Both the position numbers and the translations under genes were made by a program. Below are positions 4,691-61,573 of a stretch of DNA of 64,000 nucleotides, piece after piece (within the stretch, counting starts at the first letter, position 1; every line of letters begins with the position of its first letter). This stretch comes from Eledone cirrhosa (lineage: Eukaryota). The notes below the pieces were generated by a model. The model searched no databases. It was not told the origin of the DNA and worked only from the letters and a program-made list of their open reading frames with translations. Location: assembly GCA_964016885.1 (NCBI GenBank), contig OZ024740.1, forward strand, positions 85,188,001 through 85,252,000, read 5' to 3'.

Positions 4691-5411
4691 GGAATAACAA
4701 GTTATCGTTATAGGTAATCCAGTTAGAGGTTGTGAGTACTCTGCGTCATGGATAGTTTTAACGTACGGCTTCGTTTGACTCAACAAGATGCTTCCATAGT
4801 TATGCAGCGAGTTCGCGGTAATTTCTATGCAGGTTATACTTGGAGTAATAATAGTGAAAGAATGAAGAGTAACAAGGTTGGCTGTACAATAAAGGCTTTA
4901 TTTAAAGTACTGACAATTGTTTCGTTGATCAGGTGAGTCTAGAGTTCGCTAATCGCTTGAAGTTGCGTCATTCGATCTCCAATACATTATTTACCTCTGG
5001 TCAACACATCAGAGTACGTAGATATGAAAATAATTCACTCGAGGCAAGACATATATAGAAAAATAGCGTATAATGAAAACAATAGCATCAATAATAAAAC
5101 ATGTATGGTAAATAGGTAGAGAAGTTACAGATGTAAAAAGTAAAAAGTAAAAAGTAAAAAGTAAAATATAAGATAGGGTACATTAAAAAGTAAGAAAATG
5201 AGAAAATGGAAAATATAAATAAATAAGGATGTGAGTACATAGTATGTTAGTAATAAATATGTAGAGGTAAATAATGTATTGGAGATCGAGTGACGCAACT
5301 TCAAACGATTAGCGAACTCTAGACTCACCTGATCAACGAAACAATTGTCAGTACTTTAAATAAAGCCCCATATTGTACAGCCAACCATGTTACTCTTCAT
5401 TCTTTAACTAT
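4691..5411 (-). mobile_element. PLE terminal fold-back insert in (TA)n; inverted arms 4851-4998 / 5263-5411; tail 4691-4850
   Basis: ~148-bp inverted repeat, HHR in the left arm, flanked by TA repeats. Confidence 0.8.
4907..5017 (-). ncRNA. Hammerhead ribozyme with long stem II insertion (core variant CTGATGT)
   Basis: Minus strand reads GTACT-CTGATGT-GTTGACCAG...CTGATCAAC-GAAA-CAATTG-TC-AGTAC. Confidence 0.7.
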
Positions 5412-5769
5412 ATATATACATATATATGTATACACTCACACACAAATTCTACACACAACGAATTGTATATTTCTAAATATTATTTTAGAAAACCTTTTCT
5501 TCTTTTACTTTAGCCAAATGATAATTTAAAATAAGCAAAAACATTCCTCACATGATCCATATCTTTTCGACCTCACGACCAAACGATCCTGACTCCAAAC
5601 ATCTTTACTACAAAGCCTTCATTATGTTTGTATAAGTGTTTGTTGTGGTACAAAGGACAAGAAATTCCGTGCAGCGTTGTTTGTGGGAATTCCTATTTAT
5701 GAGAACAGCGGCGAATTTCAATACAACAAAACATTTACATCAAATTACGGACTTATCCCACACCCATGT

Positions 5770-6155
5770 CCATGCCACCACCACACACATACACGTACAT
5801 ACATATATACATACATACATAAAGTACATATACATACGTAAGTGCATATAGATACATATATGCATACATAAGTACATATACATACATAAGTACATATAAA
5901 TACATAAGTGCATATACATACATAAGTGCATATACATACATAAGTACATATAGATACATGCATAAATATATACACACACATACGCACATAGATACATGTA
6001 TGCATGCATACACACACATACATTCATCAATCCATACAAACATTAACACATGCATACACACAAATATATATATATATAAATCCACATATATCCGTACATC
6101 CGTTTCATACATCCATGTATTCTTCCACACACACACATACGCACACACACACAAG
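5770..6155. repeat. (CATA)/(CA)-derived degenerate microsatellite with an 18-bp period in part
   Basis: Repeats of catacataagtacatata. Confidence 0.85.
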
Positions 6156-6330
6156 TGTTGTCATGGGACACCTTGGTACACAGTAAAAAGGGGGAACATA
6201 GGAACATCATTCGTTGCTTTCAGTCAAAACATTCCTCCAATAATCATTCGTCCAAATGTTATTCATTAGAAATTAATGAATCCTTACCCACTCCACCCAT
6301 CAGTCACCTATTTTCATTTCCCTCCTCTTC

Positions 6331-8925
6331 TCTCTCACCCCTTTTCTCTCTCACCCCTTTTCTCTCTCTCTCACCCCTTTTCTCTCTCCAATTCTTTCTC
6401 TCTCACCCCTTTTCTCTCTCCAATTCTTTCTCTCTCACCCCTTTTCTTTCTCAAATTCTTTCTTTCTCTCTCACCCCTTTTCTTTCTCCAATTCTTTCTC
6501 TCTCTTTCACCCCTTTTCTTTCTCCAATTCTTTCTCTCTCTCTCACCCCTTTTTCTTTCTCCAATTCTTTCTCTCTCTCTCACCCCTTTTCTTTCTCTCT
6601 CTCTCACCCCTTTTCTCTCTCCAATTCTTTCTCTCTCTCTCACCCCTTTTCTTTCTCCAATTCTTTCTCTTTCTCTCACCCCTTTTCTCTCTCCAATTCT
6701 TTCTCTCTCTCTCACCCCTTTTCTTTCTCCAATTCTTTCTCTCTCACCCCTTTTTCTTTCTCCAATTCTTTCTCTCTCTCTCACCCCTTTTCTTTCTCAA
6801 ATTCTTTCTTTCTCTCTCTCTCACCCCTTTTCTTTCTCCAATTCTCTCTCTCTCTCTCACCCCTTTTCTCTCTTTCTCACCCCTTTTCTTTCTCCAATTC
6901 TTTCTCTCTCTCTCACCCCTTTTCTTTCTCAAATTCTTTCTCTCTCTCTCACCCCTTTTCTTTCTCCAATTCTTTCTCTCTCTCTCACCCCTTTTCTTTC
7001 TCAAATTCTTTCTCTCTCTCTCACCCCTTTTCTTTCTCAAATTCTTTCTCTCTCTCTCACCCCTTTTCTCTCTCCAATTCTTTCTCTCTCTCTCACCCTT
7101 TTTCTTTCTCAAATTCTTTCTTTCTCTCTCACTCCTTTTCTTTCTCCAATTCTTTCTCTCTCTCTCACCCCTTTTTCTTTCTCCAATTTTTTTTCTCTCT
7201 CTCACCCCTTTTCTTTCTTTCTCTCTCACCCCTTTTCTCTCTCCAATTCTTTCTCTCTCTCTCACCCCTTTTCTTTCTCCAATTCTTTCTCTCTCTCTCT
7301 CACCCCTTTTTCTTTCTCCAATTCTTTGACTCTCTCTCACCCCTTTTCTTTCTCCAATTCTTTCTCTCTCTCTAACCCCTTTTCTTTCTCAAATTCTTTC
7401 TTTTTCTCTCTCTCAAATTCTTTCTCTCTCTCTCACCCCTTTTTCTTTCTCCAATTCTTTCTCTCTCTCTCACCCCTTTTCTTTCTCAAATTCTTTCTTT
7501 CTCTCTCTCTCACCCCTTTTCTTTCTCCAATTCTTTCTCTCTCTCTCACCCCTTTTCTTTCTCAAATTCTTTCTTTCTCTCTCTCTCACCCCTTTTCTTT
7601 CTCCAATTCTTTCTCTCTCTCTCACCCCTTTTCTGTCTCCAATTCTTTCTCTCTCTCTCACCCCTTTTCTTTCTCCAATTCTTTCTCTCGCTCTCACCCC
7701 TTTTCTTTCTCCAATTCTTTCTCTCTCTCTCACCCCTTTTCTCTCTCCAATTCTTTCTCTCTCTCTCACCCCTTTTTCTTTCTCCAATTCTTTCTCTCTC
7801 TCTCACCCCTTTTCTTTCTCAAATTCTTTCTCTCTCTCTCACCCCTTTTCTTTCTCAAATTCTTTCTTTCTCTCTCTCTCACCCCTTTTCTTTCTCCAAT
7901 TCTCTCTCTCTCTCTCACCCCTTTTCTCTCTCTCTCACCCCTTTTCTTTCTCCAATTCTTTCTCTCTCTCTCACCCCTTTTCTCTCTCTCTCACCCCTTT
8001 TCTTTCTCCAATTCTTTCTCTCTCTCTCACCCCTTTTCTTTCTCAAATTCTTTCTCTCTCTCTCACCCCTTTTCTTTCTCAAATTCTTTCTCTCTTTCTC
8101 ACCCCTTTTCTCTCTCCAATTCTTTCTCTCTCTCTCGCCCTTTTTCTTTCTCTCTCTCTCTCACTCCTTTTCTTTCTCCAATTCTTTCTCTCTCTCTCAC
8201 CCCTTTTTCTTTCTCCAATTTTTTCTCTCTCTCTCACCCCTTTTCTTTCTCCAATTCTTTCTTTCTCTCTCCAATTCTTTCTCTCTCTCTCACCCCTTTT
8301 CTTTCTCCAATTCTTTCTCTCTCTCTCACCCCTTTTTCTTTCTCCAATTCTTTGACTCTCTCTCACCCCTTTTCTTTCTCTCTCTCTCACCCCTTTTCTT
8401 TCTCAAATTCTTTCTTTTTCTCTCTCTCAAATTCTTTCTCTCTCTCTCACCCCTTTTTCTTTCTCCAATTCTTTCTCTCTCACCCCTTTTCTTTCTCAAA
8501 TTCTTTCTTTCTCTCTCTCTCACCCCTTTTCTTTCTCCAATTCTTTCTCTCTATCTCACCCCTTTTCTTTCTCCAATTCTTTCTCTCTCTCTCACCCCTT
8601 TTCTATCTCTCTCTCTCACCCCTTTTCTTTCTCCAATTCTTTCTCTCTCTCTCACTCCTTTTCTGTCTCCAATTCTTTCTCTCTCTCTCACCCCTTTTCT
8701 TTCTCCAATTCTTTCTCTCGCTCTCACCCCTTTTCTTTCTCCAATTCTTTCTCTCTCTCTCACCCCTTTTCTCTCTCCAATTCTTTCTCTCTCTCGCACC
8801 CCTTTTTCTTTCTCCAATTCTTTCTCTCTCTCTCACCCCTTTTCTTTCTCAAATTCTTTCTCTCTCTCTCTCTCTCACCCCTTTTTCTTCCTCAAATTCT
8901 TTCTTTCTCTCTCTGCTTCTCAAAT
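6331..8925. repeat. ~2.6-kb polypyrimidine minisatellite, unit ~32-40 bp (ctctctctcaccccttttctttctccaattcttt)
   Basis: Dozens of tandem units. The 406-aa and 885-aa ORFs are translations of this repeat. Confidence 0.95.
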
Positions 8926-9649
8926 CCACATAAACGTATATGAATAGATATATATTCACACATATACACACTCATAAAGTATGTGTAATAAATACGCATC
9001 TACATATATAGCTATATGTATATATACATCCACACATATATGTACACTTATATGAGTATATATGTATATATATCGACACACGCATATATATTTTAATGTA
9101 TATATGCATATATGTGTGTATATATGTACCAAGTTTCAAGCGACGGTTTTGCACCTATCTATCTGAAAATTTGCATAGGCCTAAATCTTTTCGAAGAGAA
9201 TGTCATAGGTTATGTGCGCTTTTCTGAAACTTATTCTATTTAGCTCCGAAAAAAAAAGCTAAAAAGGTTTTATACTTCAATGCATTACCATAAACATTGG
9301 AATATATTAAGGATTAAAAAAAATAATAATTCGTTTAAAGCAAATTATTTAAATCAATACATTTTGAATAAAATCATGTTTTCCTAGAAAACATTTAAGA
9401 GTAAAAGTTTATTCCAGGTTCTACATTTATTTATTCATTTATTTATGCATTTTTATGAAGCTCAATTTGAGCCGTCTTCTGACTTACTTCGATGCTACAG
9501 TTCTGTGTGATTTAACATTTCTTGACCAACTGAAGATTCTAAGCAATATTTGAAACTAATTTATTCAAAATGTAGTGAAATTATAGTCAAGTGGAGGGGT
9601 GATCCTAATGAGTAAAGAGGGTGTTAAGTGTTCATTAGACCGGCATGTG

Positions 9650-60826: not shown

Positions 60827-61055
60827 CGAAACGCAACTTCAATAATGTGCAGACAAGCGCTCCATGCATATGAAGAGAATAGCAGAGCTATAAAGATAAT
60901 ATATACATATATATATATATTTATGTAATATATGTATAAGAGATATTTAATTTGTTGGAAATCCAACAAATATAGATGTTTACAACTGATTCAAAGCACT
61001 CGACAGTTTCTGGAGTAAGTATTCAATTGATATTAAATAATTGGAAACTATATTT

Positions 61056-61117
61056 ATTCTATTATATATATATTTCAACGGTACAAACAATTTTGGTACG
61101 CTATCATCAGATAAAAT
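61056..61117 (-). ncRNA. Hammerhead ribozyme (minus copy)
   Basis: ATTTTAT-CTGATGA-TAGCGTACCAAAA..TTTGTACCGTT-GAAA-TATATATA-TA-ATAGAAT. Confidence 0.7.
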
Positions 61118-61223
61118 ACAAAATGTTTTATAAATATTTGACATGACCAAGGATGATAGGGATAACTTGAACCGTTAAGATATATCATCCTTGGTCATGT
61201 CAAATATTAATAAAACATTTTGG

Positions 61224-61282
61224 ATTTTATCTGATGATAGCGTACCAAAATTTTGATACCCTTGAAATATATATAATAGAAT
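61224..61282 (+). ncRNA. Hammerhead ribozyme (plus copy)
   Basis: ATTTTAT-CTGATGA-TAGCGTACCAAAATTTTGATACCCTT-GAAA-TATATA-TA-ATAGAAT. Confidence 0.75.
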
Positions 61283-61573
61283 AAATATAGGTTTATAAAT
61301 ATAATTTCCATATATTTAATATCAATTGTATATATGTAATATATATATATATGAATATATATATATATATATATATATATATATATATATATATATATAT
61401 ATATATATATATATATAAATATATATATATATATATATAAATATATATATATATATATATAAATATATATATATATATATATATATATATATATATATAT
61501 ATATATATATATATATATATATATATATATATATATATATATATATATATATATATATATATATATATATATA

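Follow-up and report, generated by a model that had tools for sequence, protein, structure and literature searches.

In L1 twin priming, one strand of the target primes at the poly(A) or RNA 3' end and the second primes internally on the same RNA at variable sites, giving non-overlapping arms that meet at a microhomology junction. Among Penelope-like elements (PLEs), inverted pseudo-LTRs, a tail at one end, targeting of (TA)n and two reverse transcriptase (RT) start sites bounding the tail have all been published, and the architecture that concerns us is therefore a known one. The origin of the inverted repeats and one-sided tails of these elements is described as unresolved in two reports (PMC8557442, PMC11167929), and for the Poseidon element both priming sites used in vitro were found to be internal (PMC11167929).

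The window considered here is the whole stretch of 64,000 nucleotides of Eledone cirrhosa DNA that was analysed. A sequence-only reading had listed nine inserts in it that share the architecture (TA)n-tail-arm-[junction]-inverted arm-(TA)n, and all nine are confirmed as real, with this form and at the coordinates given below: in each, only one of the two sides bears a tail, of 58-160 nt, and the arms span 17-306 bp (two example alignments gave 167/169 and 292/306 matches). When the window was divided into 400-bp bins, 13 contained exact 17-mer inverted repeats, whereas each of 20 Markov controls gave 0 such bins. The nine inserts are head-to-head insertions of short copies of about seven PLE families, designated A to G.

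The family F insert (4691-5411) consists of a tailed arm on the minus strand (4691..5262), made up of the tail (4691-4850), an arm with a hammerhead-like core (4851-4998) and an unpaired continuation to 5262, followed by a tail-less inverted arm on the plus strand (5263..5411). Its spacer appears to be a continuation of the tailed arm, as matches to other copies establish for the family D insert at 30747-34740; there the tailed long arm (30748..34438, minus strand; tail 30748-30829), which also carries a nested 495-bp tandem repeat (32410-33523), faces a tail-less arm at 34439..34740 (plus strand). The Hydra-type family E insert has its tailed arm at 19126..19444 (minus strand; tail to 19257), with the inner end at the stop window of that family described below, and its tail-less arm at 19445..19612 (plus strand). 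In the Hydra-type family A insert the tail-less arm (25225..25293, minus strand) has its inner end at the predicted transcription start, and the tailed arm (25299..25434, plus strand) contains an initiator-like motif at 25300, a hammerhead-like core and the tail (25368-25434). Similarly, the tailed arm of the Neptune-type family C insert (28899..29113, minus strand; tail 28899-28960) has its inner end at the predicted start and adjoins a tail-less arm at 29113..29256 (plus strand). Family B, also Hydra-type, contributes a tail-less arm at 46192..46252 (minus strand) with a tailed arm at 46252..46392 (plus strand) that starts at the initiator-like motif and ends in a tail at 46311-46392, and a further insert (58411..58532; tail 58411-58488, minus strand) with two 19-nt arms whose inner ends adjoin the predicted hammerhead cut. 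The family G insert (60934..61328), with a 90-nt tail and arm on the minus strand and a tail-less arm on the plus strand, is older, its arms being about 85% identical.

Most arms align over the extents first described, but the family A insert at 46435..46585 does not consist of two 17-nt arms: its tail-less arm (46435-46500, minus strand) is about 60 nt long, and on the plus strand the tail accompanies a tailed arm from which most of the body is deleted. Likewise, the flanks are not uniformly pure (TA)n, since one flank of the 60934 insert and the flank at 46585 are degenerate or (CA)n. Two tailed/tail-less inserts were absent from the original list, namely a family B insert at 59714..59814, whose tailed arm stops within the tail so that the arms do not overlap, and a family D-related insert at 59863..60112, whose tailed arm stops at the tail boundary. 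Three tail-less ends had been regarded as solo. The one at 2148, belonging to family A (2057..2150, plus strand; TATA box at 2057), has a closely matching inverted tailed arm just upstream of the window (L041). The other two form the 3' ends of copies that extend over kilobases and retain coding remnants: that at 29272 belongs to a family B tail-less copy (29270..30499, minus strand) with a pseudo-LTR, an initiator-like motif at 29330, a TATA-like box at 29361, a 3' UTR and an endonuclease remnant (30062-30499), and that at 25045 is a family E-related end following decayed Hydra-type coding remnants (22765..25045, plus strand).

The identification of these sequences as PLEs is supported by RT and GIY-YIG frames, hammerhead-like cores and the inverted pseudo-LTR with a one-sided tail; pseudo-LTRs were found in direct or inverted arrangement, with the tail optional. 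Coding frames could be linked to four families, of which A, B and E are Hydra-type and C is Neptune-type. The family A tail is directly followed by a 758-residue open frame, whose predicted structure (mean pLDDT 93.7) recovered telomerase RT (TERT) as its four best PDB matches in Foldseek (E 3e-9 to 3e-8, TM about 0.35); a PDB sequence search with this frame gave nothing significant, and a Pfam search with the family A and B frames gave no match. The frame carries RWR, DKT and CxCx5C motifs (present in 105, 111 and 105 of 111 aligned sequences) and a GIY-YIG domain recognized by motif only, in 75 of the 111, the Pfam GIY-YIG model being passed by one of five homologues tested. Identity to this frame is 43-54% for those of families B and E, and all three families are placed putatively in the Hydra clade, which is characterized by RWK, DKT, a CxCx5C linker, and CxxC and CxH around the conserved E and N. 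Family C frames match Pfam RVT_1 and GIY-YIG, the latter above cut-off, and one of them (L115) has the CX2-5CxxC linker ahead of a C-terminal GIY-YIG that typifies the Neptune clade, to which we assign the family on these motifs. The Naiad clade, which has an N-terminal endonuclease and no hammerhead, was rejected given the C-terminal endonuclease in A, B and C and the presence of hammerhead-like cores; a miniature inverted-repeat DNA transposon, which would have symmetric terminal inverted repeats and a fixed length, was rejected given the asymmetric ends, variable arms and attached RT frames. For families D, F and G no attached coding frame was found in the 1.5-kb flanks examined, and the hammerhead-like core and the architecture suggest that these too are PLEs. 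A relaxed descriptor of our own, tuned after viewing, predicted hammerhead-like cores in 15 of the 18 window arms, always on the strand that runs from arm to tail and never on the opposite one, as against 1.1% of shuffles; Rfam returned no hammerhead at gathering score, nor among the 150 best of 386 weak matches. The tails of families A and B have 8,865 and 21,400 exact matches, respectively. In 7 of 8 tails the fold is no more stable than that of shuffles, and by eye an ACTC/GAGT-type hairpin motif recurs in tails.

Copies across the genome were located by sequence patterns. As the sequence-only reading anticipated, outer ends are discrete: of 75 family B arms in 1.264 Mb sampled regardless of tails, 63 terminate in TA. 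Relative to the tail boundary, 29 of these lie at 0 to +2 and 5 at -5 or -12, and a further 29 are placed no more than 12 nt from the tail end; the interval from +3 to +65 holds none. The tail-less end falls at a single site in families B-E, but in family A two sites lie about 8 nt apart. The claimed union of one tailed with one tail-less arm is near-strict: 43 unbiased pairs comprise 39 tailed/tail-less, 2 tail-less/tail-less, 0 tailed/tailed and 2 other, and when bystanders are included 65 of 68 classifiable pairs (73 in all), not selected by their tail, are tailed/tail-less (p 4e-16), equal tailing of the arms not being seen. Exceptions among 175 pairs amount to 4 tailed/tailed and 2 tail-less/tail-less, with tail-less arms below about 10 nt undetectable. 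The tail-less end shows 3-5 nt of TA homology, except at one family A site with only 1 nt, and no same-subfamily arm ends occur at an internal (AT)5 tract of family C; the last two observations argue against the self-complementarity of (TA)n as a sufficient cause.

The inner ends are stereotyped as well, which the first reading had missed. In one 15-nt window, defined after seeing the data and located at the initiator-like motif, 196 of 288 arms stop, compared with 5 of 92 in the next 15 nt. Three of five families have a TATA-like box about 30 nt ahead of this stop window; families D and E lack such a box, and for them the landmarks derive from the junction cluster itself. Its position is fixed relative to the TATA-like box, and its distance to the hammerhead cut ranges from about 40 to 135 nt by family, i.e. 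about threefold. We predict that transcription starts at the stop window, against which counts the TATA-less internal promoter of Drosophila Penelope (PMC2377424). Both arms pass the stop window in 19 pairs and both stop there in 58, with 3 mixed (concordant in 77/80). By counts tallied by eye, an untemplated G, as expected from a cap, precedes the predicted +1 of family B in 5/100 rows versus 5/100 at a control position, and that of family C in 11/100 (p 0.19 against the control position used for family B), a negative outcome that does not support a cap-derived G. The 58411 insert had suggested that inner ends might peak at the hammerhead cut, but only 11 arms lie within 3 nt of it and the adjacent 7-nt bins hold 11 and 16, so that no such peak exists. 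A drop in RAD read depth near the stop zone was set aside, there being probably a restriction-like site at that place.

The account that best accommodates these features, and which we consider probable, is twin priming: one RNA would be copied from two fixed internal sites, usually with run-off to the predicted 5' start, and the copies would then be joined. The endonuclease would cut both strands, and, by analogy with Poseidon in vitro, both 3' ends would prime, at the tail boundary and the tail end, on the same RNA molecule. The original proposal of two primed cDNAs, one from a fixed internal site, stands in that respect, but the other site is not the RNA 3' end: the 5' region and coding frame come directly after the tail in intact copies (L111, L114, L115, L174; the frame precedes the tail in L112, L117, L120), and hence both sites are internal. 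The tail-end cDNA may displace the other, giving overlapping arms, or be blocked near the boundary, giving non-overlapping ones. Transcripts would begin within the pseudo-LTR, no more than some 60-190 nt upstream of the inner priming site; priming on the 5' pseudo-LTR would thus yield tiny run-off palindromes, and priming on a downstream read-through pseudo-LTR long arms. That two active sites bring the cut strands to separate positions on one RNA, and that these positions, lying just behind the element's transcription start, make most products run-off palindromes of the strong-stop type, we hold to be somewhat likelier than an even chance. Finally, the two cDNA 3' ends would be joined via microhomology or added bases and filled in. 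Among 141 junctions 60 were scorable, of which 34 carry 1-18 nt insertions; at least 2 nt of microhomology is present in 15 of the other 26, as against 16% expected, and these junctions support the proposed head-to-head joining of two separately primed cDNAs.

The same pairing could arise if a single tail-end-primed cDNA ran off, folded back and was copied to the tail boundary, or by self-priming on antisense RNA, as proposed for rotifer Penelope (PMC3846280). Under such fold-back, too, pairing should be strict, the arms should share variants and their lengths should agree, and among 117 pairs with both arms at least 30 nt long the inner ends indeed lie within 10 nt of each other in 83. However, the same arm should then always own the loop, yet the tailed arm is longer by more than 10 nt in 18 pairs and the tail-less arm in 16; very unequal arms run in both directions in family D (window insert versus L156), and that either arm may be longer argues against simple fold-back. 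An earlier asymmetry (tail-less longer, 39 versus 19) was partly detection bias and vanished at this threshold. Furthermore, 25 tailed arms have less than 30 nt above the boundary, and 7 of these share no sequence with their partner (7/143 pairs lack overlap); unpaired tail-less ends exist, and the TA homology of the tail-less end is that expected of a primed end. We therefore regard fold-back as unlikely. Later deletions in palindromes could shorten either arm. A model with two primers on separate RNA molecules, in which an asymmetric protein dimer holds the RNAs and restricts each strand to one site, would dispense with strand displacement and fit the symmetric arm lengths, and a dimer has been predicted for Poseidon (PMC11167929). 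Against this, the two arms of a pair nearly always behave alike at the stop zone, either both passing it or both stopping; in 5/5 families they resemble each other more closely than unpaired arms do, and they have subfamily variants in common, which favours one RNA over two; and tailed arms ending near the boundary are in excess, as if the other primer had blocked them; we think this arrangement rather improbable. Gene conversion could raise arm identity.

Twin priming might also be right with the inner stop marking an RNA-structure pause or a splice acceptor in place of a transcription start. In favour of this, the family A stop falls on the 5' strand of hammerhead stem I, the motif looks like a pyrimidine tract with CAG, no cap-derived G was supported and a Penelope intron ends at helix I (PMC4209133), but the threefold variation in distance to the hammerhead cut, the lack of a peak at that cut, the retention of AG in truncated copies and the lack of a common upstream exon in the 200 listed rows leave this a small chance. 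Palindromes are a known class of assembly or chimeric-read artefact; here, however, the arms are not identical (mean 95-98%) and end on family-specific sites. In raw short reads from later runs with the same species label, (AT)n abuts the family B tail boundary in about 3,000 reads per run, and strand-switching joints near the stop zone are present as well; the family C boundary end recurs in contigs of two other species labels, so that an artefact is hardly credible.

Although the elements and their shape were already known, the tens of thousands of copies in this genome yield quantitative rules that bind any mechanism. These rules (the two sites are used in a complementary manner, both arms have an inner stop in common, and either arm may be the longer) argue against the published self-priming idea and could be tested in the existing in vitro Poseidon system. 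If fixed-site twin priming is true, one rule would account for the abundance of tiny copies as well as for the inverted pseudo-LTR and its tail on one side. Such inserts are easily mis-annotated as miniature DNA transposons or microRNA hairpins.

Families A, B and E resemble the Hydra-clade PLEs, as far as the available text of PMC8557442 describes them, in the C-terminal GIY-YIG, the RW(K/R), DKT, CxCx5C and hammerhead motifs and (TA)n insertion, but have tails of 67-132 nt as against 30-40 nt, and thousands of short copies; that text yielded no description of the pairing and inner-end rules. Family C, with a 62-nt tail, compares with the Neptune clade by motifs, the linker being taken from the same text. 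Like the Penelope elements of Adineta vaga (PMC3846280) and Drosophila virilis (PMC2377424), the inserts have a head-to-head inverted pseudo-LTR with an optional tail on one arm, and the Adineta vaga pseudo-LTR, as here, has TATA and initiator-like motifs; it was read there as self-priming on an antisense template, whereas our data favour two primed cDNAs. As in Poseidon PAc of the green anole (PMC11167929), two internal start sites would bound the tail close to where the coding frame begins, with cutting and extension of both strands and a hammerhead upstream. In vitro, however, the Poseidon sites showed no strand preference or target homology, which counts against our reading; in the present inserts site use is complementary within pairs, and 1-5 nt of TA homology is seen at the inner site. 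Three rules we did not find in print: the near-strict pairing, the common inner stop window and the joint passing or stopping of the arms. The inserts work like twin priming, with probable internal priming by the second strand on the same RNA and a microhomology junction, yet they depart from the L1 process in that neither site is variable or at the RNA 3' end and overlap of the arms is the rule.

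Local alignment of each of the nine fold-back inserts noticed in the sequence-only reading against its own reverse complement bore out all nine, and in every one an extension of 58-160 nt was present on one arm, the other arm stopping at TA-rich sequence. Bins (400 bp) with exact 17-mer inverted repeats numbered 13, as against none in every one of 20 Markov controls, and self-BLAST placed the inserts in about seven families (A-G). Two further asymmetric inverted pairs, in both of which one arm bears a short extension, lie at 44854-45481 and 41300-41911 and fall in no assigned family. 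The window also contains decayed copies of Penelope-like elements (PLEs) with Hydra-type coding remnants (19620-19997, 22765-23455, 23975-24160, 30062-30499 and 9791-10294), a 495-bp tandem repeat (32410-33523; 2.3 copies, 98% identical) nested in a TA run of the family D arm and related to copies at three other sampled loci (L041, L127 and L044), a 2.6-kb CT-rich satellite of 36/72-bp period (6329-8913), and a frequent dispersed short repeat family that is probably SINE-like (3390-4319, 13042-13229, 35140-35396, 50597-51035, 55830-56246 and others).

The PLE identity proposed in that reading is near certain. No domain was recognised in the family A frame by Pfam and no significant PDB match was found by sequence; the best structural matches of its predicted model are telomerase RTs. 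Of 8,000 scored, 1,404 are homologues of the frame at E<=1e-20, and when 111 sequences were aligned (the frame itself and 110 of the 120 homologues listed) its RWR, DKT and CxCx5C motifs, those of the Hydra clade, were kept in 105-111 of them and the GIY-YIG pattern in 75. Related frames, 43-54% identical, adjoin families B and E, and those of family C match RVT_1 and GIY-YIG and possess the Neptune-type linker; no coding frame was linked to families D, F and G within 1.5-kb flanks. Of 18 window arms, 15 have a hammerhead-like core on the arm-to-tail strand and none has one on the opposite strand, which fixes the RNA sense. Exact matches to the tail patterns in the 3.0-Gb genome numbered 8,865 (A), 21,400 (B), 5,622 (C), 80 (D), 653 (E) and 9 (F), with none for the reversed control of each. 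At other sampled loci, a family G-like sequence is fused to the tail of family A close to the predicted hammerhead cut and may be a recombinant (L014:1440-1565), and three family B pseudo-LTR units stand in retrozyme-like tandem at a spacing of about 257 bp (L124:4514-5166).

If sites were chosen independently, about half of the pairs should join a tailed to a tail-less arm. Among 43 head-to-head pairs from the 1.264 Mb sampled regardless of the elements, 39 were tailed/tail-less, two tail-less/tail-less, none tailed/tailed and two unclassifiable, in support of the suggested asymmetry; with bystanders at other loci added the count is 65 of 68 classifiable pairs, and across all pairs, tail-selected and long inserts included, 158 of 175 (four tailed/tailed). 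The outer ends were mapped for 545 arms of families A-E, those with long references, onto natural reference copies in 1.95 Mb, which includes the 1.264 Mb just named. TA repeats adjoin 98 of 117 unbiased ends, tailed or tail-less, compared with 8.9% of random positions, and the ends are discrete, as had been anticipated: none of the 63 TA-flanked ends of family B arms falls in the +3 to +65 stretch of the 77-nt tail. At the tail-less site, TA homology spans 3-5 nt in families B-E; family A has two such sites, one with 5 nt and the other with 1 nt. The proposal that one strand primes at the RNA 3' end fared less well: the tail end is not that end, because element sequence carries on past it at L111, L114, L115, L174 and probably L261.

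The inner ends follow a second rule. Of 288 arms reaching a 15-nt stop window, which was placed after inspecting the data, 196 end inside it, and 5 of 92 do so in the following 15 nt. By the general consensus for the TATA box and initiator, this window contains an initiator-like motif in families A, B and C, and a TATA-like box has its first base 24-38 nt away; such boxes are found at that distance from 1-3% of positions in their references. Families D and E share the initiator-like motif but lack a TATA-like box. The window may be read as a predicted transcription start. A cap-G test at this start was negative, and no shared upstream exon was found in truncated B and C copies among the 100 matches listed per family, the sequence there being heterogeneous. 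The ribozyme is ruled out as the setter of the stop, since the hammerhead cut lies between about 40 and 135 nt from the window, depending on family. In family B the predicted ribozyme straddles the stop zone; at L071:1536-1640 its loop II holds the TATA-like box and predicted start, so that the whole ribozyme would exist only in read-through RNA. At the inner ends of family B, runs of poly(T) or poly(A) (L061 and L063, and among the matches listed) are what untemplated addition, or slippage where a template ends, would be expected to leave. A family A copy whose frame is uninterrupted (L114:4965-7285) starts upstream of the predicted start by 4-5 nt, right after TA-rich sequence.

Taken together, the pairing and inner-end rules point to twin priming at fixed sites of one RNA, akin to but distinct from that of L1: two separately primed cDNAs would be copied from it and then joined head-to-head, a full mechanism that we regard as moderately probable. 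In each of the five families, though weakly in C, paired arms resemble each other more than unpaired arms do, and the stop zone is passed by both arms in 19 pairs (two or three of the long ones may be chance neighbours), stops both in 58 and is mixed in 3, with 78 pairs having a shorter arm omitted. Folding back of a single cDNA would likewise yield such likeness and concordant stopping; against it, where both arms are at least 30 nt (117 pairs), the longer arm is the tailed one in 18 and the tail-less one in 16, and a further 25 tailed arms stop <30 nt from the boundary, 7 of them without overlap, whereas tail-less arms of this kind number at most 8. Later deletion within the palindromes could also have made arms unequal. 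The junctions themselves, where the sequence-only reading had proposed to look for microhomology, bear insertions in 34 of 60 scorable cases and microhomology in 15 of the other 26 (versus 16% expected).

Independent data show similar ends, in matches that represent family copies rather than the window's loci and may include short-read chimeras. In two later RAD runs with the same species label, (AT)n adjoins the family B boundary in 3,390 and 2,988 reads and the tail end in about 1,000 reads per run, and strand-switching joints lie close to the stop zone; in another run, the third, and in three sets of contigs, family C ends fall on the boundary or close to it, and joints occur at the stop zone.

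Neither strict pairing nor a stop at the start site nor twin priming by PLEs was found in the literature searched, which was available in part and excluded subscription journals (including older PLE reviews); supplements may bear on the point. Besides the sources on PLE architecture, the comparison took in PMC4209133, PMC2377424, PMC13282606, PMC9977147, bioRxiv 10.64898/2026.07.22.740005 and PMC3649969. Published work on PLEs already describes the inverted pseudo-LTR, the one-sided tail, the bias towards (TA)n and the two start sites (PMC11167929, PMC3846280 and PMC8557442 among the literature used). The inserts belong to known PLE clades and their architecture is known; the worth of the finding lies in the pairing rule and the inner-end rule.
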